This document shows, one piece after another, positions 2,496 to 14,341 of a stretch of DNA of 14,922 bases. Position numbers and translations under genes: made by a program. The DNA is from a virus, in the UHGV virus genome UHGV-0216241, one strand, 5' to 3'. Below the pieces are notes generated by a model, which had not been told where the DNA came from, made no database searches, and saw only the letters and a list, made by a program, of their open reading frames with translations. Every line of letters begins with the position of its first letter. The first letter of the stretch is position 1.

Positions 2496-4388
2496 TTATG
2501 GTTTTAGTTGTAGTTGTACAAATGCTTCCTCGTGTGCGATAGCTACATCTAGGTATTGGAAACTACGAATTGCAATAGTTTGTGCTGCACGGTAGGTAGT
2601 ATCATCAAAATCTAGTTCTTGGCCTTCATTCCAGTTAGCAAAGATTAGCTCAGAGAAATCACCGATTAGAATGGTATCTGCTGCTACGAAAGTAGATTCA
2701 ATTACACGTACTTCGTCATTCAACCACATGTCATAACGATGACCTGCTACCATTGCTACGGCTGCGGTGTTATTCAATACTGCGGTTTGACGTAGTTTTG
2801 CAAGCATAGAAGGATGCACGATAGCTACACAACGATTAATATCAACGTTTTTAGCGGAGATAGCTTCGATTGCTGCCTGTACGTCTGCTTCTGATACTTG
2901 ACCAGATACTGCGGTTTGTTTTACTGGTACAGTAGTAGCGATTTGTGCAAATACTGCGGATTCTAGACCGTTAGAGCATTGGCGTAGTAGCTCGTCGGTG
3001 ACGTAACGTTCGGTAGCTGCGTTGCTTAGTAGCATTGCTTTAGTGATTTTGATACCTGCTGCGAACATGCGAGGCTTTAGAGTGATTTTATCGAAATCAT
3101 TACGACCATCATCTACCGCCTCATCTTCTGCGTAGAATTTAGCGGTAGGAGTCATACCTTTAGAACGTGGGATAGAGAAATTGCCACGTCCGGCAAGCCC
3201 TCCGAACACGGTAACATCAAGTTGACCTAGTACAGTTTGAGCGAGTAGTTGACGAATATAGCTGTCTGCTAGTTCTTCTTTTACAAGACCCGCCGCTGTC
3301 ACGGTTGAAGTGGTATCAGCGGTGCTACGTACCATTGCGTTTAGATCTGCATTATAACCGCGAGCACCTTTTTCGAAAGATTCTAGATCGTGTGCTTCAC
3401 CTTTTAGACTGCGTAGACCTTCGTTAATTAGAGATTTCTTTTCCATTTTTTTGATATCCTTATCAATTGATTTATTATCTGTATTTAGTGAGCGTTTAAA
3501 GTCTTCTACGCTTACACCGTTTTTAATTGCTTCTTCTGTACTAACGCCTAGTACCGAAGAAATAGATTGAAGTTCGCGTACACGCTTATCTTCTACTTCT
3601 TTATTTATGCTTTCCTGAATATCAGTTACTGCAATAGAACGTTCTTCTACTAATTCAGGTTGTACTTCCTGTACTTCCTCAATTACTTCCGGTTCTTCTA
3701 CTACTTCTACTGATTCTTCCGGTACTGGTACTTCTTCTTCGATTACTTCGGCTTGTACTTCTTCTTGTTGTACTTCCTCAATAACTTCAACTTCATGTAC
3801 TAGTTCTTCTTTTTGTTCTGGTTCCATTTGGGGTTGATCCTCTAAAGTAATTTCATCATTACTATTTAGTGATCTTCCCACACCTACGCTATTGTCTGCC
3901 GGAGTGGATACGCTAGATACTTCGTAGGGTTGCCATTTTGAAACGATTAGATCATTACCGTCTAGGTAGTAATCTAGAATGTTATAACCTACGGATACTT
4001 TAGGGCGAATACCTTCTACGATCATACCGAAGATAGTATTTGCAGTACCTAAAGCACTAAAACGTACAGTAGCACGACATACCTTATCCATATCTACGCG
4101 AGCATTTTCAACTATACCAACTTGACGCATTGCATCATGTTCTACTAGTACAGGGGCACCGTCATTAAGACGGCTTAAATCCACGTTCTCAGGACTACAT
4201 AAAAGGATCTCATTATAGAGAGTCCCTTTAATATCGCGTACTACTGGAACTTCACTTGCAAAAGAGAGTTCTACCGTTCTGTCAGCTTCATCAATTGCAT
4301 TATTGATTTGCGTTATATTGATCGCCCTCGTCTGGTTCTTGTTCAATTCCATTTTCTTTATTTTCCTTGTTGATTTCTTCCATGACAA
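2496..4388 (-). CDS. Prohead protease - acidic linker/scaffold - HK97-fold major capsid protein fusion
   Basis: 630-aa ORF. The N-terminus (LSFASEVPVVRD...APVLVEHD) resembles HK97-type prohead protease motifs. The middle is a Glu/Val-rich low-complexity block (EEVQQEEVQAEVIEEEVPVPEE...). The C-terminal ~300 aa has an HK97-like capsid character. Lies directly downstream of the portal. The start is uncertain (ATG 4388 or 4352); both overlap the portal 3' end. Confidence 0.7.
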   Translation of the reverse strand: MSWKKSTRKIKKMELNKNQTRAINITQINNAIDEADRTVELSFASEVPVVRDIKGTLYNEILLCSPENVDLSRLNDGAPVLVEHDAMRQVGIVENARVDMDKVCRATVRFSALGTANTIFGMIVEGIRPKVSVGYNILDYYLDGNDLIVSKWQPYEVSSVSTPADNSVGVGRSLNSNDEITLEDQPQMEPEQKEELVHEVEVIEEVQQEEVQAEVIEEEVPVPEESVEVVEEPEVIEEVQEVQPELVEERSIAVTDIQESINKEVEDKRVRELQSISSVLGVSTEEAIKNGVSVEDFKRSLNTDNKSIDKDIKKMEKKSLINEGLRSLKGEAHDLESFEKGARGYNADLNAMVRSTADTTSTVTAAGLVKEELADSYIRQLLAQTVLGQLDVTVFGGLAGRGNFSIPRSKGMTPTAKFYAEDEAVDDGRNDFDKITLKPRMFAAGIKITKAMLLSNAATERYVTDELLRQCSNGLESAVFAQIATTVPVKQTAVSGQVSEADVQAAIEAISAKNVDINRCVAIVHPSMLAKLRQTAVLNNTAAVAMVAGHRYDMWLNDEVRVIESTFVAADTILIGDFSELIFANWNEGQELDFDDTTYRAAQTIAIRSFQYLDVAIAHEEAFVQLQLKP

Positions 4389-5796
4389 TAACCGGATCGT
4401 ATCCCATCTCCGAAATTACCATTGCCTTACTCTTTAAACCGTTATCAATTGCTAATACTTCGGTTTGAAGGTCTTTATATGGATCTAGGGAGATTTGACG
4501 CGTCTGTACATATTGTGCATGAGTCAATTTATTAAAATCACTAAAATTTAAATTGCTTAATGTACTACTATTTAGCATTGCAGATTTTAGCCATGCAATA
4601 TAAAGAGGTTTCAGTACAGATACAATTAAAGCATTAGTACGGCTTTTAAATGTTGATTGCTGTAATTTATCAGTTAACTTTGCAGCACTGAATGAAGCAT
4701 TGCTAGTATCAGAAGTTAGAGATTGTTTTGTAATATCTAATCCCATTGCAATCATCATCATTTGGTTATCAATAAACTCTTGTATACCGTCGGTAGTCTG
4801 AGATGGGTTTACTGTTTTAATATCCTGACCTGCCTGTAGTTCTACGATTGCAGCCGGATTTAGATAGTCCTGGTCATAGTACGATACACTATCATCAGTC
4901 AGTAGTTGTACATCATCGCTATCGGGGTTAGTGATAAAGGCCATTGCGGACGCCGCAACCTTACGGGAAGTAATTGCTGCCGCCATAAATTCCTCTAACT
5001 CTTTTAACTTCTCAGTACCGGAATGTACGTCTGGTATCCCGCGTTGCTGTGTTGGGTAGTCCTGTTGAAAGAGATGTAGGATCTCATCTGCTGGTACTCG
5101 TTCACGCTCACCAATCATATAGTTATACATGATAGGATTGTAACGCGTTACCCAATAGGCTACGGGGCGATTTGTATTAATATCAAATTCAATACCATTA
5201 CTGATAAAGTTTCCCGACGGTAGTAACTGGTTCTCATAGGTAGAGATACGCATTGAATCGATAATCTCGATCTGTGGTAGTTCACCTGGCTTACTGTGAA
5301 TACGTACGAAGCAATCGCCATCTACTGAACGGGTACGTTCAACTAGACGTTGAAAGGTACTGATATCTAGAGTACCGCAACGTGAAAAGGCTTTAGGATC
5401 TTCGGCCCATGCATAGAACGCATCTTCAATTTGTTTATCGATTGACTGGTTAACTTCTTCGTTATCAGAGCTATGAGTACAAGGACGAATATATAGGCCA
5501 TCTGCACCTGTTACGCCTGCACTATTCGTACTGACATATTTCTTTACAATACCGTTCTTAATTGATAATTCACGACTAACGGCGACCATTACGGGTAGAG
5601 TACGGTTAATGATTGCGTTAATATTGCCAGCCTGATTACCGCCAGTGAAGCCAAATGAGATAACAGGGCTAGATGATCCCAAATTAAGGGAAGTCATTGC
5701 ACGTTTCATCGGGTTATTCTTCATTAGCTTCACTGGCTTCTGTACTAATACCTTCTGTTTTGGTTCTTCTACTTTCTTTTTATTCCATCCGAACAT
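4300..5796 (-). CDS. Portal protein (lambda gpB-like)
   Basis: 498-aa ORF between the terminase and the protease/capsid gene, with size and position typical of a portal. Its start overlaps the upstream stop as TAATG, indicating translational coupling. Confidence 0.75.
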   Translation of the reverse strand: MFGWNKKKVEEPKQKVLVQKPVKLMKNNPMKRAMTSLNLGSSSPVISFGFTGGNQAGNINAIINRTLPVMVAVSRELSIKNGIVKKYVSTNSAGVTGADGLYIRPCTHSSDNEEVNQSIDKQIEDAFYAWAEDPKAFSRCGTLDISTFQRLVERTRSVDGDCFVRIHSKPGELPQIEIIDSMRISTYENQLLPSGNFISNGIEFDINTNRPVAYWVTRYNPIMYNYMIGERERVPADEILHLFQQDYPTQQRGIPDVHSGTEKLKELEEFMAAAITSRKVAASAMAFITNPDSDDVQLLTDDSVSYYDQDYLNPAAIVELQAGQDIKTVNPSQTTDGIQEFIDNQMMMIAMGLDITKQSLTSDTSNASFSAAKLTDKLQQSTFKSRTNALIVSVLKPLYIAWLKSAMLNSSTLSNLNFSDFNKLTHAQYVQTRQISLDPYKDLQTEVLAIDNGLKSKAMVISEMGYDPVIVMEEINKENKENGIEQEPDEGDQYNANQ

Positions 5797-6287
5797 TATC
5801 TAGATCTCCTAAATGTAGTAATTGATTTGATAGGACATCCAGTATTGAATCCTTTCATATCCGAAAGTAAATCATTTGCACGACTGACATATACAGGGCG
5901 TAGTTTCATAAGTATTTCACTACTTTCATATGTTAATGATTTATTTTGAATTGATTGACTTAATACACCACCGCCCTTAATTCTATCCATGATGATCTGG
6001 TCAATATCTTTGATGATTTGCATCAGGTCATTATATTCTGATGCCTTTGAGGTTGGATCTACTACTTCGAATTGTTGTACTCCATACGCTTTAGGACTAT
6101 TGATGATTGCAGTCCAGATACCCGCTACCCAATTACTAGTATCAATATCGGGGAACGGGTATGTATAGGAGGTCTTTACCCCATTGGGATCAATCAAGTC
6201 TACTTCTGACCCAGCGGGGTAATCGAATGTAATAGTCTCGCCTTTGAAGATATCGCCTTTTAGAGTTACTTTGCGAACTATTGCCAT
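5796..6287 (-). CDS. Hypothetical head-module protein (occupies the position of lambda gpW between terminase and portal)
   Basis: 163-aa ORF, tightly packed between the terminase large subunit stop (6299) and the portal start (5796). No recognisable motif. Confidence 0.5.
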   Translation of the reverse strand: MAIVRKVTLKGDIFKGETITFDYPAGSEVDLIDPNGVKTSYTYPFPDIDTSNWVAGIWTAIINSPKAYGVQQFEVVDPTSKASEYNDLMQIIKDIDQIIMDRIKGGGVLSQSIQNKSLTYESSEILMKLRPVYVSRANDLLSDMKGFNTGCPIKSITTFRRSR

Positions 6288-6298
6288 TTTATTTTTCC

Positions 6299-8218
6299 TT
6301 ATTTAAAGAAGCCACCACCTTTACGCGGCCTTATTACTCGTTTTGGAGTTGGCTTAGTTGGTGTTTCTTCTGTATTTACTTCTTTATTTAGTCCTGCTTT
6401 CTCTTTTTGTTTCGCGTTGTATTCCCTTAGTTGTCGGAATGGTTGACTACCTAATTTAGATAGATACCACTGGAAACATATAAGCGAGTAATTAAGACAA
6501 TCAAGGGTTTCATTTCTCGCCGAACTAACTTTCTTCACCCATACCCAGGCACCAGCCTTTATTACTCGCTTCTCGGAAGTAAGCTGAATAAAGTAATCAT
6601 CCGGTACTGAATGACTGAAATGTATTTGTACTTCCTTACTATTTTCACTATCGGATACAGCACGGTTGAGTAATTGACGGACGTTTGATTTGCCTAAGTT
6701 TACGTTAAGGTTAATCAGGGAGTGACCACCAGCGGTACTACCTTTGAATAATGGGTTAGAGTTAGACGTACCACCCTTGATAGGTTTAAAGATAGTAGAA
6801 TTACTGCAATAGCGATATACGGTACTAGTTGCGTTGCCGTTACTACTATCGACGAATCCAGCTAATACTTTAAGTGGTTTACCCGAACGTGTTTTCAATG
6901 GGGCGTTAGCAAAGGCCGTTAGCTTATTCCATGCTGGGGCTTCGATCTTCGTACAGTCAATTGCGTATATACTGCGATGATCTAAAACATAGAGATTCTT
7001 CTCACTTACTCCTAGTGTACTTATCTCCAATCTGTCAAGCTGCTGGTCAACGCCGAATACCACCCCTAGTACGTCATCGGGGATATTATTGATATCTATT
7101 TCACTATCTCTTAGGTTCTCCAATAATACTAAATCATGGTCGGTATTCTCTTTATCAATATATGGCAGTCCTAGTACGTTGTTATAGAATGATGCCAGGT
7201 CAAATGTATAATGTGCTTCTGCAAAGTCTGCTACAATTGATTTTATGGAATTGATGGGGGAATAGAGTCTAGATATGTGATAGCCCATTATATCCGTTAC
7301 TTCCGGTGCTGTTACTATCCATTCACCTTTACGGATCATTCGTACACGTTCTGCTTCTGTTATTACATTATTACACTTAGGACATTCTAGCCTTGCAGTG
7401 TCTGCATCTGGAATACGACGGCGACCACCTTCAATAATTTTCCATTCGAATTTAACGTTTTCGAATACCATTTCGTGTGAGTGGTTACAGTGGGGGCAAG
7501 GTACATAAAACTTCTGTTTATTACTTTGTTCGTACTGTTGGGTAATCAGGTCATGCTCATCTAGTGGAGTAGAACAACACATAATCAGGGGGTTACTGAA
7601 TGCTTTCGTTCTCTGTTCTGCCAGCTTCAAGGGATTGCCTTCTTCGCCGTCGGCGTTGACATTGGATATCTCATCCAAAAATACGCGAGGGGCCGTTAGA
7701 CCACGTAGTGAAGCACTACTACCCAATGACAGGAAGTAGGTAAACGTTCCATCTAAATTTTGTTGTGTCTTGTCATTGTTCGTATAGTTCTTGTCGTTCT
7801 TATTACTAACGAGATTTTTCAGTACCGAACATGCTTCGATGACTGCTTGCCATTTACCAGTCCTAAATTTACTAGTAGTACCACCAGTAGCACCACCAAA
7901 GATCATGTTACTAGGATCATTGGCTAGGAAGTAGTACATACTATTCTGTAGTACCGTTGTTTTGAGGAGTTGAGCACTGCTCATGAGCACCACCTTACGG
8001 ACGCGTGGATTTACGATATCGTTGATGGGTTTATGCTGAAAGGCGAATAATTTGACACGCTGCCCCTGTAGTTCGCCGTCCGGGAAGACTAGATTACTCT
8101 CTACCCATTCAGCGGGTAGTTGTTTCTTCGGAGGTAGGATCGACTTCGCCGCCCTCGTTAGTATCTTCATCATCTTCTGGTAGTTGGTCTTCATATGTTC
8201 CCTCATATTCATAGCCAC
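6299..8218 (-). CDS. Terminase large subunit (GpA-type, cos phages)
   Basis: 639-aa ORF, the size of lambda gpA. Has a Walker-A-like FGGATGGTTSK, two Cys pairs (CPHCNH...CPKCNN) and sits directly after the small-subunit gene. The start may be an internal Met (8194, 8173 or 8170); any choice overlaps the small-subunit gene. Confidence 0.8.
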   Translation of the reverse strand: MAMNMREHMKTNYQKMMKILTRAAKSILPPKKQLPAEWVESNLVFPDGELQGQRVKLFAFQHKPINDIVNPRVRKVVLMSSAQLLKTTVLQNSMYYFLANDPSNMIFGGATGGTTSKFRTGKWQAVIEACSVLKNLVSNKNDKNYTNNDKTQQNLDGTFTYFLSLGSSASLRGLTAPRVFLDEISNVNADGEEGNPLKLAEQRTKAFSNPLIMCCSTPLDEHDLITQQYEQSNKQKFYVPCPHCNHSHEMVFENVKFEWKIIEGGRRRIPDADTARLECPKCNNVITEAERVRMIRKGEWIVTAPEVTDIMGYHISRLYSPINSIKSIVADFAEAHYTFDLASFYNNVLGLPYIDKENTDHDLVLLENLRDSEIDINNIPDDVLGVVFGVDQQLDRLEISTLGVSEKNLYVLDHRSIYAIDCTKIEAPAWNKLTAFANAPLKTRSGKPLKVLAGFVDSSNGNATSTVYRYCSNSTIFKPIKGGTSNSNPLFKGSTAGGHSLINLNVNLGKSNVRQLLNRAVSDSENSKEVQIHFSHSVPDDYFIQLTSEKRVIKAGAWVWVKKVSSARNETLDCLNYSLICFQWYLSKLGSQPFRQLREYNAKQKEKAGLNKEVNTEETPTKPTPKRVIRPRKGGGFFK

Positions 8219-9371: not shown

Positions 9372-9398
9372 ATACTCCTATTGCATGTATAGGAGTAT
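9372..9398 (-). promoter_or_regulatory. Shine-Dalgarno-sequestering hairpin in the 5' leader of the 128-aa gene
   Basis: Perfect 10-bp inverted repeat ATACTCCTAT (9372-9381) and ATAGGAGTAT (9389-9398) with a 7-nt loop. On the minus-strand mRNA the AGGAG Shine-Dalgarno lies in the 3' arm, paired to ACUCCU. Confidence 0.45.
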
Positions 9399-9443: not shown

Positions 9444-10142
9444 TTAGTAAGAATGTATATAATGTGAGATTGGTATAGTACCGCCAGTGTAGGTACTAAT
9501 TTCTAATTCCTTCGCTACTAAATCAAGTATATCCAAGTGTTGCTGTATATCTTGATGTGGTGTTCCATTATTATCTAATAGGTTATGGGGAAAGAGTATA
9601 CTAATTTGTGCTATTTCTCCTACCATAGAAAGATCATTACCATGAATGTAATTTATTTTACGTTCATCGTGGTTATGTTCATGGTATATAGTGAACTTCT
9701 CATTACCTACATCATTTAGGCGACCATAACGCCAGCTAACTTGAAAGATACTACCCATATCATGTACAGTAATTGAATCGTCATTACTACCATCGATAGT
9801 AACATCAACAATATAATTACCGTGATTGATGCGGTAGTCTTCGATGCTTCCCGTTGGTAGATTTGGTTCGGATAGTTCTAGTACGGTTTCATTTTCATCA
9901 AAGCGATAGGAGGCTAATTCTATTGGTAGCATATTGTAAGTATCTAATTCATTATAGCTAATCATGCGGGTAGATTCATTCCATGTATTACCCATGAGTA
10001 CACCAACAAAATTACCGTTATGATCGCGGTGATCACCATCACCCATAATAAATGGAGTGTTACGCGTATACATTACAATCTTACCCGCACGACGAACAAC
10101 AATACCGTTAGTATGTTTAGTGAGAGTTACATCAAAAATCAT
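9444..10142 (-). CDS. Hypothetical His/Asp-rich protein (232 aa), moron-like cassette gene
   Basis: ORF with a GAGGAA Shine-Dalgarno 6 nt upstream and its own terminator. Has His-rich patches (GDGDHRDHNG, HEHNHDERK). No family recognised. Confidence 0.6.
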   Translation of the reverse strand: MIFDVTLTKHTNGIVVRRAGKIVMYTRNTPFIMGDGDHRDHNGNFVGVLMGNTWNESTRMISYNELDTYNMLPIELASYRFDENETVLELSEPNLPTGSIEDYRINHGNYIVDVTIDGSNDDSITVHDMGSIFQVSWRYGRLNDVGNEKFTIYHEHNHDERKINYIHGNDLSMVGEIAQISILFPHNLLDNNGTPHQDIQQHLDILDLVAKELEISTYTGGTIPISHYIHSY

Positions 10143-10164
10143 TATACTTTCCTCATTAGATTTT

Positions 10165-10187
10165 ATTATAGACCACTGTGATTAGTG
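10165..10187 (-). promoter_or_regulatory. Putative promoter -10 (TATAAT) plus a 15-bp repeat element upstream of the 232-aa gene
   Basis: Minus-strand TATAAT at 10170..10165, ~22 nt upstream of ATG 10142; the -35 is poor. The adjacent 15-mer CCACTGTGATTAGTG (10173-10187) is identical to 9419-9433 inside the downstream terminator. Confidence 0.3.
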
Positions 10188-10199
10188 TGTGTATTATTA

Positions 10200-10421
10200 T
10201 TAGTTAGTATCGAACAATGGCTTTATTAGTGGTATCTCTTCTTCCCCTTCAATTGGTTTACCGTGATGATCTGCTACGCGTACTATCGTATTTTCATACG
10301 GATTAATACTATAATAGTTTTGATGTTCTTCGGTACTAACAATGATACGTTCAATGATCATATCACTATCGCTCACTGAATCAGTGAGATTACGGATTGC
10401 ATCTAATAATTTCTCTAACAT
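10200..10421 (-). CDS. Hypothetical small protein (73 aa)
   Basis: ORF tightly packed (9-nt gap) downstream of the secreted-protein genes on the same strand. Confidence 0.5.
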   Translation of the reverse strand: MLEKLLDAIRNLTDSVSDSDMIIERIIVSTEEHQNYYSINPYENTIVRVADHHGKPIEGEEEIPLIKPLFDTN

Positions 10422-10430
10422 GTTTACCCC

Positions 10431-10817
10431 TTATTTTATTTTAACGCAGTTTTGAAAGTAGTAATTACGAGTATCAGATCTCAATAAGAAGATAAAAGTA
10501 ATATCGTTTTGCTCTTTACTTCCCATTGTTGCAAGGAAGTATCGCTGCCTATCATTATCATAAGCCATTGTCATTGAATCATTAGATTCTATTGGTCCGG
10601 TGGCGTGAGTCATTGCACCGAAGTTAAGGATAAAACCATCACTATTAACTTTAGCGTGACCTGCACCAGAATAAGAAGATTTTTCTACTGGAGTATCACC
10701 CAGCATTTCAACTACTTTCACATCACATTGATACAATCCCTGCTCTGGTAGAGAGTGAGTGTTAGCCAGTACCGAAGGAGATACTAACAGTAATGCAGAT
10801 ACGATAACCTTTTTCAT
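10431..10817 (-). CDS. Secreted small protein with cleavable signal peptide, two conserved Cys (paralog 1)
   Basis: N-terminus MKKVIVSALLLVSPSVLA is a classic Sec signal peptide. AAGGAA Shine-Dalgarno 5 nt upstream. Shares architecture and motifs (LPxxGLYxC ... FxNC) with the adjacent gene. Confidence 0.65.
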   Translation of the reverse strand: MKKVIVSALLLVSPSVLANTHSLPEQGLYQCDVKVVEMLGDTPVEKSSYSGAGHAKVNSDGFILNFGAMTHATGPIESNDSMTMAYDNDRQRYFLATMGSKEQNDITFIFLLRSDTRNYYFQNCVKIK

Positions 10818-10826
10818 TTCTATTCC

Positions 10827-11219
10827 TTATTCAATAATACAATTGGAGAAGTTCAAAAATACGGGATTATTCTCATTGCTGACCATATACTGTGTTTTAC
10901 CATTGATTGCACTAATAATAATATCGTACTGGTCAGTATCTACGGCATAGGCCATCAGGCGACCGCTTTTAAGTTTTGAAACAGGGCTGAATGAAATATT
11001 CATATCCCTAAACTTCACACTAACAGCACGGTTATCAATACTCACATAACCAGTCATACCATAATAACCAGTCTTTACTACTCGCTTTCCTACCTGTTCC
11101 CACGATTCAACACCGCAACGATATAAACCATCATCAGGGAGTATTACATTTACTGCCAGTACCGAAGGGGCTACTAACAGTAATGCAGACAGTACAATCT
11201 TTTTCATAAATTCATCCAT
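10827..11219 (-). CDS. Secreted small protein with signal peptide (paralog 2); true start probably ATG at 11207
   Basis: MKKIVLSALLLVAPSVLA signal peptide begins at the fifth codon. The mature region has the same Cys spacing as the downstream paralog. Confidence 0.6.
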   Translation of the reverse strand: MDEFMKKIVLSALLLVAPSVLAVNVILPDDGLYRCGVESWEQVGKRVVKTGYYGMTGYVSIDNRAVSVKFRDMNISFSPVSKLKSGRLMAYAVDTDQYDIIISAINGKTQYMVSNENNPVFLNFSNCIIE

Positions 11220-11325
11220 TCGGGATTATCTACTTTATCAGAATCAATGGCATTGTTGATGCCAGATAATGACAGTGTTTTTGATTACGGCGACTGCAAT
11301 TTAATAAGTAGGGTTAATGTATTTT

Positions 11326-11331
11326 ATTATA
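11326..11331 (-). promoter_or_regulatory. Possible extended -10 promoter element (TGaTATAAT) for the secreted-paralog operon
   Basis: Minus-strand TGATATAAT in the 11208-11386 intergenic gap; no good -35. Confidence 0.25.
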
Positions 11332-11386
11332 TCATAGTAATATGCAGTCCCCATAACTAAAAGTACGGCAAATATTGTTTTCTTCA

Positions 11387-11767
11387 TCACAGATTATCGT
11401 CTATATAATTAGTTGGTTTCGATAACTCAAATTCTGTACCGTAATTATTTGAACGATCAACTATCTTAGTGGTGTTTTTGTGGGGGCCGTGGGCTTTATG
11501 TTCTTCGAAGCTATGAATATTTGTAAGTCGGTCGGCGGCAATAATACAGCTACCAGTAGATGGGCGTTCTTCACCCAATAGCATAGGCTGACAATCACTA
11601 CTGAATTGTGGGCGATACTCTTTACCACCATTTACGGGGAATAATACTAGTGTACGACCGTTAATATCACCTACTACGGCTTCATTCATAAAAGCAGGCG
11701 TTATAGTAGTACAGCCAGTAGTGATTGTAGCCGTAGCGAGTACAGCTAGGGTAAAGAGATTTTTCAT
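11387..11767 (-). CDS. Exported protein, possible lipoprotein (126 aa)
   Basis: N-terminus MKNLFTLAVLATATITTGC is a hydrophobic signal sequence ending in Cys (imperfect lipobox TTGC). AAGGA Shine-Dalgarno 7 nt upstream. A perfect TATAAT (11819..11814) lies upstream. Confidence 0.6.
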   Translation of the reverse strand: MKNLFTLAVLATATITTGCTTITPAFMNEAVVGDINGRTLVLFPVNGGKEYRPQFSSDCQPMLLGEERPSTGSCIIAADRLTNIHSFEEHKAHGPHKNTTKIVDRSNNYGTEFELSKPTNYIDDNL

Positions 11768-11833: not shown

Positions 11834-11870
11834 GTAATAGCTACTACTTTATTTGTGTAGTAGCTATTAT
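11834..11870 (-). promoter_or_regulatory. Stem-loop with 12-bp perfect inverted repeat between the 227-aa gene and the exported-protein gene; terminator or operator
   Basis: AATAGCTACTAC (11836-11847) and GTAGTAGCTATT (11857-11868) with a 9-nt loop. Sits right after the stop at 11876 and overlaps the -35 region of the TATAAT at 11814-11819. There is no clean U-tract on the minus strand. Confidence 0.4.
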
Positions 11871-12747: not shown

Positions 12748-12941
12748 AGCTTAATGTTGACGCGTTTTCTAGTAAGTAAGCTCAATAGTGCTTCGTTATA
12801 GGTAGTGTGCCACTTCTTACCATCACTAAAAGGCTTGTTGATGTGTCGGGGATGCTTAGACATAGTGACCGCCCCTACCTTTCGGTCGTGATCGTCGAAA
12901 ACTTCGGTTATAAGTCCACCTGCAATACAACTAATACGCAT
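12744..12941 (-). CDS. Hypothetical small protein (65 aa)
   Basis: ORF in an operon-like array; weak GGGA Shine-Dalgarno. Confidence 0.45.
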   Translation of the reverse strand: MRISCIAGGLITEVFDDHDRKVGAVTMSKHPRHINKPFSDGKKWHTTYNEALLSLLTRKRVNIKL

Positions 12942-13022
12942 GTAAAGATCCCAGCAATGAAGAAAAAGAAATTTGCAGCCGCAAGGTAAGTAAAGGTTAA
13001 TTTTTTTTCATAGAGTGTCCAT

Positions 13023-13063
13023 ATTAACACTACTAGTACATTTTCGGTACTAGTAGTGTTAAT
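13023..13063. repeat. Perfect 17-bp inverted repeat (palindrome) with 7-nt spacer
   Basis: ATTAACACTACTAGTAC (13023-13039), spacer ATTTTCG, then GTACTAGTAGTGTTAAT (13047-13063). Located 4 nt after the stop of the 97-aa gene. No adjacent U-tract on the minus strand. The spacer carries the recurrent TTCGGTACT motif. Confidence 0.6.
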
Positions 13064-13066
13064 TGA

Positions 13067-13360
13067 TTAATGTACGTTAGTAACTTCTTCGGATACTACT
13101 TCTAGTAATGAAGTGAAAGCACGTTCACCATCGAATCGGGCAATAGTGATCTTATCGGTTACACTCTTGGGTAAATTGATGTTCTTTTCCCAATGGAACA
13201 AGCCACCAGACATAAGAAACATACTGAATAATTCACGCTCATTATGACGGGAACTAATTACTATATGAAACATTCCCGTTACACGATTATCAATCTCGTT
13301 GATCTTGAATCCTAAATCATGTGCCTTAATGACCAAATCAGTAGATACACCCTTAGACAT
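13067..13360 (-). CDS. Hypothetical protein (97 aa)
   Basis: ORF with a GGGAG Shine-Dalgarno 9 nt upstream; its start overlaps the stop of the upstream 28-codon ORF. Confidence 0.55.
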   Translation of the reverse strand: MSKGVSTDLVIKAHDLGFKINEIDNRVTGMFHIVISSRHNERELFSMFLMSGGLFHWEKNINLPKSVTDKITIARFDGERAFTSLLEVVSEEVTNVH

Positions 13361-13439
13361 TTTCGATACTCCCTACGATTAGTAACATGGTTATGATGAC
13401 TACAAATAGTACATGCTCTTTAGTGATAGTGAACGTCAT
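13353..13439 (-). CDS. Unannotated 28-aa hydrophobic peptide (MTFTITKEHVLFVVIITMLLIVGSIENV), predicted single transmembrane helix
   Basis: Hand-translated; missing from the ORF track, presumably below its length cutoff. GAGGA Shine-Dalgarno 6 nt upstream of ATG 13439. Stop overlaps the next gene's start by 8 nt. A promoter-like element lies upstream. Confidence 0.4.
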   Translation of the reverse strand: MTFTITKEHVLFVVIITMLLIVGSIENV

Positions 13440-13468
13440 GTTGTGTCCTCGTTGTATTGACACCACTG

Positions 13469-13497
13469 ATACTAGAATCATTAGTTACTAACGTCAA
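13469..13497 (-). promoter_or_regulatory. Putative sigma70-like promoter for the 28-aa/97-aa operon
   Basis: Minus-strand -35 TTGACG (13497..13492), 17-nt spacer, -10 TAGTAT (13474..13469); ATG at 13439. Confidence 0.4.
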
Positions 13498-13533
13498 CAC
13501 TAGATACTAAAATATTTTATTAGTAGAAAACAC

Positions 13534-13561
13534 TTGATAGTAACTAACAGTAGTGTATACT
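13534..13561 (+). promoter_or_regulatory. Putative sigma70-like promoter for the plus-strand 60-aa gene (divergent from the minus promoter)
   Basis: -35 TTGATA (13534-13539), 16-nt spacer, -10 TATACT (13556-13561). The 10-bp element TAGTAACTAA occurs at 13538-13547 and as an inverted copy at 13481-13490 in the other promoter's spacer. Confidence 0.45.
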
Positions 13562-13601
13562 GTCTTTATTGAAGCAAAACACTACTACGAAGGGATATAT
13601 A

Positions 13602-13787
13602 ATGAATACAGTAACTTACTTAGAACGCGGTAACATCACTGATATCATGGTTAACGATGTATATATGGGGGCAGTAGTAAAAGGTGACGATAACAAATAT
13701 CGTACCGTACATAAGAACAATGCAGAATCTGGTACGTTTACTGCTTTCCACTTCGCAGCGTACCATGTAGAAAAAGCAGTTTGATAG
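13602..13787 (+). CDS. Hypothetical small protein (60 aa), the only plus-strand gene with its own promoter and terminator
   Basis: ATG 13602 preceded by an AGGGA Shine-Dalgarno (13591-13595); this is the internal Met of ORF-track entry 13569..13784. Followed immediately by an intrinsic terminator. Confidence 0.55.
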
Positions 13788-13795
13788 AAACGATG

Positions 13796-13820
13796 AAGCC
13801 CACATTAAGTGGGCTTTTTT
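13796..13820. terminator. Rho-independent terminator for the plus-strand gene, overlapping the 3' end of the convergent minus-strand gene
   Basis: Stem AAGCCCAC / GTGGGCTT (13796-13803 and 13809-13816), 5-nt loop, then a T6 run ending at 13820. The last five codons (TKKPT) and stop of the minus-strand 178-aa gene are encoded within the hairpin and T-tract. Confidence 0.7.
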
Positions 13821-14341
13821 GTCTTGCGTGGTTTCTTAGTCTTCGGTACTGGTACTTCTTCCGGTACTGACACGTCCTCTACAACGTCCTGTACACCCCT
13901 TAGAATGCGTTCTACTTCATCGGCATTGCGTTGTACGTCTTGATGTACTCCGGCTTTCCAATAGGCTTGTAGTGCTTCTAAATTGGGGATTCCCTGGCTT
14001 GCGACAACTCCATCAGTATGGTGAATATGTAGGTCCAATCCACCATTGATACGGGCACGGAAGTTATGCGGGTTATTATTCAATATTTCGATTTGCATTA
14101 TTGTTACTCCATTGATTATGCAGTCAGACATAAAGATTATTTCATCCAGATCATCCATGACTACGGACAATTGGAAGTATTCCGCTTCATTCAGTCCTAG
14201 ATAGTAATCAGGGGGATGATCGTACTTGATAGTATTATTTAGTAGTATTCCTTTCGTATTGACTGCATAACGCCTGGATAACTGGCGGTCATTGAAAATC
14301 AATCCACGGGGATTATTGTATACGATTTTTAGTTTTCTCAT
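13805..14341 (-). CDS. Hypothetical protein (178 aa) with Lys/Pro-rich basic C-terminal tail
   Basis: ORF with C-terminus PEEVPVPKTKKPRKTKKPT and a His-rich patch (GGLDLHIHHTDG). No family recognised. Confidence 0.55.
   Translation of the reverse strand: MRKLKIVYNNPRGLIFNDRQLSRRYAVNTKGILLNNTIKYDHPPDYYLGLNEAEYFQLSVVMDDLDEIIFMSDCIINGVTIMQIEILNNNPHNFRARINGGLDLHIHHTDGVVASQGIPNLEALQAYWKAGVHQDVQRNADEVERILRGVQDVVEDVSVPEEVPVPKTKKPRKTKKPT

Follow-up and report, generated by a model that had tools for sequence, protein, structure and literature searches.

The closest described systems to the locus studied here are of three kinds. The first is the back-to-back genetic switch, as found in lambda (PRM/PR, CI/Cro), TP901-1 (CI/MOR) and Mu (c/ner). 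The second is the moron, of which lambda bor and lom and HK97 gp15 are examples. The third comprises membrane proteins of fewer than 50 amino acids (aa), including Ibs, TisB and Ldr, and KdpF, AcrZ and SidA. Our locus is in the virus genome UHGV-0216241; the whole stretch analysed, 14,922 nucleotides (nt) long, is referred to as the window. It contains two predicted σ70-like promoters, P_left and P_right, placed back to back. P_left precedes an unannotated 28-codon gene for a membrane peptide, followed by a gene for a 97-aa protein. P_right precedes a 60-aa gene that ends in a terminator, and copies of the palindrome TAGT-N-ACTA lie over both promoters. We consider the region to be a junction of two leftward transcription units in a prophage, holding three separable things: the coupled pair of leftward genes, the 60-aa gene as a mobile cassette, and the palindromic sites. 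The probability that we assign to this explanation, taken as a whole and with the roles that it proposes for promoters, operators and proteins, is roughly 0.55.

As in the back-to-back switches, the promoters are divergent (about 105 bp apart), palindromic sites occur over both, and the repeats of the control region are lineage-specific. Unlike in those switches, the two flanking proteins show no recognisable DNA-binding fold and are not basic, one relative does without the rightward 60-aa gene, which is also mobile among phages, and the first leftward product is a membrane peptide and not a Cro-like protein. The 60-aa gene resembles a moron in having its own σ70-like promoter and intrinsic terminator, in interrupting an otherwise one-way run of genes, in being present, absent or displaced among related prophages, and in recurring with its promoter in unrelated phages. 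The differences from morons are that its G+C content is not distinct, it sits in the early or regulatory part of the genome rather than in a late operon, and most relatives retain it. The peptide, with 26-28 aa, one hydrophobic helix and short polar ends, is like the small membrane proteins, and like them is missed by standard gene callers. However, it has no antisense RNA and no sequence similarity to any of those families, and it is coupled to, and inherited with, a soluble 97-aa partner in a phage operon.

The 28-codon gene and its 97-aa partner

The preliminary description of the window reported an unannotated open reading frame (ORF) for a hydrophobic 28-aa peptide, translationally coupled to the 97-aa gene. 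We found the ORF at the position described (Table 1). The RefSeq annotation of NZ_CM135810.1, a complete genome carrying the same prophage, lists the 97-, 60- and 172/178-aa genes as hypothetical and has no gene between the 97- and 60-aa genes. Related prophages and contigs are given L numbers here; the distant ones were reached via homologs of the 60-aa protein and of a 65-aa protein. Between lineages with 28 codons, the proportion of synonymous differences (pS) in frame 0 was 0.35-0.54 and that of nonsynonymous differences (pN) was 0.05-0.11, giving a pN/pS of about 0.2. Conversely, pN equalled or exceeded pS in the two other frames. The synonymous bias that the preliminary description had set as its test is present, and in the ORF's own frame only.

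The ORF is kept at 26-28 codons in all relatives but L026. It encodes MTFTITKEHVLFVVIITMLLIVGSIENV in the window, …LFVVLITLFLIVGSIDNV in L013, …LLVVLITLYLIVGSIDNV in L018 and L021, MTFTITIRREHVLVAILITIFILAGAL in L017 and MTFTITIRKEHVLVAILITIFCLTGV in L023, five lineages in all, and L033 carries a related peptide, MIITFKITAERVLFVLLMIIFVLTGQY. In L013, L018 and L021, the place of the Shine-Dalgarno sequence is taken by AGGAG or GGGAG. The hydrophobic core is 15-17 residues long; core residues 11-25 have a mean Kyte-Doolittle value of 2.99, and the grand average of hydropathy (GRAVY) of the whole peptide is 1.53. The peptide was absent from a collection of 15 billion proteins. Judged by its pattern of substitution and retention, the 28-codon ORF is very probably a real gene.

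The coupling to the 97-aa gene was also borne out. The two genes overlap by 8 nt in the window (ATGTCTAA), and the peptide stop overlaps or abuts the start of the 97-aa family in every lineage (ATGTCTAA, ATGTTTGA, TAATG or TAAATG). Peptide and 97-aa family co-occur: both are found in the window, L017, L023 and L033, and neither in L026. Between the divergent promoters and the pair, L017 and L023 have one or two extra genes: a T4 gp30.7-like gene is present in each, and L023 has a lipoprotein gene as well. Since the pair is set apart from the divergent promoters in these lineages, and both members are missing from L026, the peptide belongs with the 97-aa gene and not with the promoter region.

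Sequence searches with the 97-aa protein gave matches only in this prophage family, and tblastn against phages gave none. Its AlphaFold2 model, with a predicted local distance difference test score (pLDDT) of 86.6, has an α-β4-α-β-α order and is RWD-like. Small phage inhibitor proteins with a comparable, RWD/UBC-like fold include T7 gp1.2 and PsiB. The difference is that the best viral structural matches of the 97-aa model are uncharacterised proteins of virulent phages. The protein is acidic (isoelectric point, pI, 6.2), and nothing suggests DNA binding. Upstream of the pair, the -10 element of P_left is invariant, and the -35 element nearly so, across the window, L002, L013, L018 and L021, although the flanks have diverged. 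P_left would act as a restart promoter, with the peptide as its first cistron and the soluble, RWD-like protein as the second. The peptide and the 97-aa protein probably act as a pair, for example as a membrane-anchored modulator of a host or phage protein.

Several of the related prophages are decaying. In L022, the gene coupled to the peptide ORF starts with ATA instead of ATG (near position 2763). L013-L016 have a truncated 76-aa partner and a fragmented terminase. The peptide ORF is still intact in these prophages.

The 60-aa gene as a probable transferable unit

Both promoters of the preliminary description were located, with P_right the closer to consensus. The same description called the 60-aa gene the only plus-strand gene. 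It is the only convincing one in the window; in the whole prophage, however, the endolysin gene is also on the plus strand. A strong σ70-like promoter is predicted 33-53 nt upstream of the ATG of the 60-aa family in all four genomic backgrounds in which the family was found, matching the consensus at 10/12 positions in the window, 12/12 in the metagenomic phage contig L027, and 10/12 in both Klebsiella phage KLB5 and Salmonella phage PCSE1. The 5′ untranslated region (UTR) of the 60-aa gene is unstructured and folds at 0 kcal/mol.

At the other end of the unit is the strong terminator that the preliminary description placed in the 3′ end of the convergent minus-strand gene. Its hairpin does hold the last codons and the stop (13805) of the 178-aa gene, and the Lys-rich tail of the 178-aa protein, KTKKPT, is encoded by the T-run and stem of the terminator. 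The stem has undergone compensatory changes in five lineages (L023, L017, L026, L013 and L018), and the variants in the prophage family are GCCCAC/GTGGGC, GCCCCG/CGGGGC, GCCCC/GGGGC and GCCCGC/GCGGGC. The terminator of the cassette would also close the convergent upstream unit. Read on the minus strand, the hairpin has a folding energy of -14.6 kcal/mol and a poor U-tract, so read-through from the upstream unit, and its collision with transcription from P_right, may be possible. An Rfam search over the region gave nothing beyond a Phe-leader match at the terminator, a chance one with E = 0.48.

The 60-aa gene of L017 (6171-6191) and L026 (~3170-3192) extends into its own terminator hairpin: the stem encodes the KPQ end of the protein, and the loop holds the stop codon.

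The homologs in KLB5 (61% identity), PCSE1 and L027 (two copies) are in phages that have no other gene in common with the prophage, and each is oriented as its neighbours. The layout in KLB5 is terminator-promoter-gene-terminator, so that the homolog there also has a downstream terminator. Within the prophage family, L026 carries the cassette on the other side of the p178-like gene. In the 7.2 kb of L033 that were examined, neither a 60-aa nor a 178-aa homolog occurs and no gene is reverse-oriented; the peptide, the p97-like protein, p65 and p227 are kept. A predicted promoter of its own, an own terminator, and presence, absence or displacement among relatives, by which morons are recognised, are all found in the sequences. 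A distinct base composition is not: the gene has a G+C content of 0.388, the window as a whole 0.393, and the neighbouring genes 0.37-0.41. These comparisons make it likely that the 60-aa gene moves as an autonomous unit. Morons behave in this way, whereas a repressor dedicated to immunity would not.

L027 is an unrelated 69-kb phage contig. Its two copies of the family are diverged and lie about 1.7 kb apart, at 6255-6416 and 8001-8183.

The 60-aa family is an orphan: a search at E ≤ 0.001 among 1.84e9 representative proteins found four clusters, and we judge two of these, which are repeat-protein matches, to be spurious. AlphaFold2 predicts a five-strand β meander (pLDDT 68), and the sole matches of this model in a fold search, OspA single-layer sheets at E > 0.3, are uninformative. 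The protein is acidic, with a pI of 6.2. No helix-turn-helix or ribbon-helix-helix was found in the 60-aa or the 97-aa protein by Pfam, PHROGs, NCBIfam and PDB searches. The equal length and five strands had raised the idea of a CsrA-like protein. We rejected it; an hhalign comparison with a manually written CsrA alignment gave a probability of 0.1% (E = 0.65), and Pfam gave no CsrA match. In our explanation, the strong host-RNA-polymerase promoter and open ribosome-binding site would direct synthesis of this acidic, all-β protein, and transcription would stop at the terminator. The protein would most likely be accessory, made early or in the lysogen, rather than a DNA-binding repressor.

The TAGT-N-ACTA sites and other readings of the junction

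According to the preliminary description, each promoter carries the same 10-bp element, as inverted copies. Both copies are there: TAGTAACTAA is at 13538-13547 on the plus strand, with its reverse complement at 13481-13490. However, the element is itself an 11-bp palindrome, TTAGT-N-ACTAA, so the label "inverted" adds nothing, and there are really three copies of one site. Sites A and B are over P_left and site C is over P_right. Despite diverged flanks, L013 and L018 retain site A in the spacer of P_left, as ATAGTTACTAA. In 11 relatives at ~97% identity, site A has two changes (TTAGTATCTAA) and site B is better than in the window, with an exact TAGT-N-ACTA core (CTAGTTACTAA); the window is the outlier. 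Site C occurs only in the lineage of the window and L002, and a 12-bp indel removes it in L013, L018 and L021.

Exact TAGT-N-ACTA sequences occur six times in the 32.5-kb prophage, against 1.4 ± 1.2 expected from dinucleotide shuffles; the 42.9 kb of host flank contain none. Two short intergenic regions, ~230 bp in total, hold four of the six. One pair in the complete prophage is sites B and C, 37 bp apart. The second pair, two exact copies of TAGTTACTA 20 bp apart at the lysis end (L019 30144-30172; NZ_CM135810.1 120143-120171), is in a 65-bp gap upstream of an 88-aa gene whose product has an N-terminal transmembrane segment and a coiled coil. This clustering inclines us, by a modest margin over an even chance, to regard TAGT-N-ACTA as a functional site. 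The copies over both promoters would be operators for a lineage-specific dimeric regulator encoded elsewhere in the phage, and the same regulator would act on the second pair.

The 88-aa gene converges on the endolysin gene across a bidirectional terminator, which mirrors the layout around the 60-aa gene.

Elsewhere in the family, the 60-aa proteins of L017, L023 and L026 are 75-82% identical, yet the control-region repeats are wholly different. Each lineage has its own: GTAGCTAC three times in L017, GTATANATACCTG twice in L023 and TAGCTAAT eight times in L026. No TAGT-N-ACTA was found near the 60-aa homologs of the three unrelated phages. Taken together, these observations make the 60-aa protein unlikely as the binder. 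The 65-aa protein encoded just downstream is basic (pI 10.0) and is a possible candidate. A ribbon-helix-helix protein near the integrase was rejected, because L004 and L006 lack it yet have the same sites.

The repeats of L026 lie at 2507-2594 and 2978, the 8 copies being within 3.5 kb. Those of L017, GTAGCTAC/TAGTAGCTACTA, lie at 5661-5970. In L023, the tandem GTATANATACCTG (2860-2884) is inside a 10/12 leftward promoter.

The layout had been likened to a genetic switch or a small toxin-regulator module. The peptide gene, its coupling, the self-contained 60-aa unit and a probable binding site survive from that proposal, but the junction is probably neither a phage lysis-lysogeny switch nor a toxin module. 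For a switch, the 60-aa protein made from P_right would be a repressor with a new β-sheet DNA-binding fold, which binds TAGT-N-ACTA, shuts P_left and regulates its own gene. Its gene is indeed the only reverse-oriented one in the regulatory part and stands back to back with P_left. Palindromic sites lie in the spacers of both promoters, with the further pair at the lysis end, and no other repressor candidate was found. Repeats that differ between lineages are also a property of immunity regions. The protein, however, is acidic and has no helix-turn-helix, ribbon-helix-helix or AbrB-type match. A repressor is expected in every functional relative, and the gene is missing from L033, where the region examined has no reverse-oriented gene at all, and displaced in L026. 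In the three unrelated phages, the homologs are co-oriented with their neighbours behind constitutive-looking promoters. The proteins of L017, L023 and L026 stay similar while the repeats change entirely and, conversely, an identical 60-aa protein is found in close relatives with altered sites A and B. Site C is missing from the L013 and L018 lineages. On balance, we favour the view that the 60-aa protein is not the repressor, and we consider a switch of this kind unlikely.

A little less likely still is that the 10-mer is a by-product of composition, with both promoters ordinary, unregulated σ70 promoters and nothing binding the repeat. A 10-bp exact inverted repeat in the 162-bp intergenic region has a P of only 0.033 against 2000 dinucleotide shuffles. 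On this reading, the phage is rich in TAGTA and ACTA words; across the window, the excess is about fivefold for AGTAGTA, ACTAGTA and GTTAGTA. Sites A and B hold 3 of the ~11 positions that vary among the 97%-identical relatives, or at least 4 of ~11 if the column between site A and the P_left -10 element is counted; site C is confined to one lineage. Against this stand the roughly fourfold excess of the exact sequence over shuffles, its concentration in ~230 bp of intergenic DNA, with an independent pair upstream of a lysis-region gene, and the retention of site A in the P_left spacer across lineages with diverged flanks.

No recognisable repressor was found in any lineage of the prophage family examined. 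It is conceivable, though we doubt it slightly more than the preceding reading, that a prophage family lacking a conventional repressor has its master control region at this junction, with the 60-aa protein as a new operator-binding protein or anti-repressor and the peptide and its RWD-like partner as a new two-component effector. If so, the effector might serve, for example, in superinfection exclusion or host takeover.

It is very improbable that the 28-aa peptide is a membrane-damaging toxin of type I style, neutralised or controlled by the 97-aa or 60-aa protein: it has the predicted size and hydrophobicity of Ibs, TisB and Ldr, and is tightly coupled to and inherited with a small partner gene, but it comes first in a long operon and has a good Shine-Dalgarno sequence, the pair persists in L033 without the 60-aa gene, and no antisense RNA gene was found. 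No plus-strand promoter of at least 9/12 covers the ORF in the window, a candidate seen in L013 is not conserved, scoring ~6/12 at the same place in the window, there is no Rfam RNA, and the leader has no long structured 5′ UTR (hairpin of -6.4 kcal/mol, z = -0.9). Likewise, PADLOC, Pfam and NCBIfam gave no toxin-antitoxin family match, and of a type II system, with its known toxin and DNA-binding antitoxin, only the coupling of the genes is seen.

Several points weigh against the junction of separable parts that we prefer. The promoter scan found 8 promoter-like matches in the region, where shuffles gave 8.2, so the scan alone is not evidence of promoter function. The G+C content of the 60-aa gene, being that of its neighbours, shows no recent foreign origin, and most relatives have the gene at this junction, so that it looks more like a core gene than a typical moron does. 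Its model is only moderately confident, and a DNA-binding dimer is possible. Each lineage has its own repeats around the promoters, as immunity regions do, and the junction may be a regulatory hub after all. Finally, no alternative repressor was found, the ribbon-helix-helix protein being missing from relatives with the same sites.

Prophage setting and neighbouring elements

The genes of the window are part of a 32.5-kb Escherichia coli prophage that splits yegD, seen on E. coli chromosomal contigs and in NZ_CM135810.1. The prophage ends in a gene for a 532-aa large serine recombinase, by which it is inserted in yegD. Many E. coli chromosomal contigs carry a gene for the identical 60-aa protein. 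Among 50,697 phage records, Megablast revealed no near-identical cultured-phage relative of the window, and the large terminase is at most 37% identical to that of any deposited phage. A literature search for the yegD prophage gave nothing relevant. All genes of the prophage are leftward save the 60-aa gene and the endolysin gene at the far end. The 28-, 60-, 97-, 178-, 113-, 65-, 73- and 227-aa proteins had no above-threshold match in PHROGs, Pfam, NCBIfam or PADLOC; for the 73-aa protein, there was only a sub-threshold, FlhD-like match. PDB sequence searches with the 65-, 73- and 227-aa proteins, as candidate regulators, returned nothing meaningful, and the 65-aa family had no match in GTDB species genomes.

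Table 1. Features at the junction, in window coordinates.
Feature	Position	Strand	Details
Hairpin between the 97-aa gene and the next genes	13023-13063	-	17-bp perfect stem, 7-nt loop; -23 kcal/mol, z = -8.4
97-aa gene	13067-13360	-	Translationally coupled to the peptide gene; own Shine-Dalgarno GGGAG at 13369-13373
28-codon gene	13353-13439	-	Unannotated; encodes MTFTITKEHVLFVVIITMLLIVGSIENV, a single-pass membrane peptide; first cistron downstream of P_left
Shine-Dalgarno of the 28-codon gene	13446-13450	-	GAGGA, 6 nt before the peptide ATG
P_left (predicted)	13469-13497	-	TTGACG-17-TAGTAT, σ70-like, 9/12; promoter scan
Site A	13481-13491		TTAGT-T-ACTAA, perfect palindrome; in P_left spacer, centre about -24
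Site B	13500-13510		CTAGATACTAA, degenerate; 19 bp away from site A, immediately before P_left -35
P_right (predicted)	13534-13561	+	TTGATA-16-TATACT, σ70-like, 10/12, for the 60-aa gene; promoter scan
Site C	13537-13547		ATAGT-A-ACTAA; overlaps P_right -35 and spacer
60-aa gene	13602-13784	+	Coding part of moron-like cassette; Shine-Dalgarno AAGGGA at 13590-13595, 6 nt upstream
Intrinsic terminator	13795-13823 (hairpin 13795-13817)	+	9-bp G+C-rich stem, 5-nt loop, T6; -17.9 kcal/mol, z = -5.7
178-aa gene	13805-14341	-	Ends the upstream leftward unit; converges on the 60-aa gene; no family match

The hairpin downstream of the 97-aa gene probably belongs to the leftward transcript as an RNA element. 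Most relatives differ at a single arm position such that a G-U pair forms on the minus-strand RNA only, which points to a function as RNA. The word AACACTACTA of this hairpin recurs at 13578-13587, in the leader of the 60-aa gene. Two further perfect or near-perfect intergenic hairpins are at 11835-11869 and 9372-9398 (TAATAGCTACTAC N9 GTAGTAGCTATTA and ATACTCCTAT N7 ATAGGAGTAT), the former adjoining a perfect TATAAT. A motif common to the three hairpins was rejected; each is unique.

A second hidden small hydrophobic ORF is at 12908-13011 of the window, on the minus strand. In the 11 close relatives, ATG and A6 lead into an intact 33-aa peptide, MKKLTFTYLAAANFFFFIAGIFTCVLVVLLVDL, overlapping the start of the 65-aa gene; this peptide, too, was absent from the 15-billion-protein collection. 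The window has an A8 run (T8 at 13001-13008) that shifts the frame, which may be an assembly error or a real mutation.

Two other parts of the prophage vary. One, at 9444-11767 of the window, separates the early genes from the small terminase and is a region of variable cassettes. Here, the window encodes two paralogous signal-peptide proteins, of 128 and 130 aa, and a 126-aa lipoprotein, and L002-L011 have alternative sets of 152/157/167/218-aa genes. The integrase-proximal arm occurs as two alternative modules, as seen when L004, L006 and the right arm of L017 are compared with L002 and L012. One of the modules consists of a ribbon-helix-helix protein, an HNH-like protein of 201 aa, and proteins of 160 and 113 aa. 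The other consists of a 645-aa protein with a weak match to the CyRepA1 replication protein and a GIY-YIG/T5orf172 endonuclease. The window has a G+C content of 39%, though it belongs to an E. coli prophage. GCGC is absent from it (22 expected), GTAC is 2.6-fold over-represented (137 against 52), and the heptamer AGTACCG/CGGTACT occurs 23 times on both strands, against 1.2 expected.

These findings overturn nothing in current understanding. They do draw attention to a yegD-integrating prophage family without recognisable repressor or replication genes, in which the control elements differ from lineage to lineage. The main concrete gain is an unannotated small-protein gene with an obligate partner: a validated 28-codon gene found by no gene caller among 15 billion predicted proteins, whose partner has a confidently predicted fold that is uncharacterised and widespread in virulent phages. 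In addition, an orphan gene of 60 aa appears to travel between unrelated enterobacterial phages together with a strong predicted promoter. Such behaviour is typical of anti-defence and host-modulating genes, which makes the 60-aa gene a sensible choice for functional screening.

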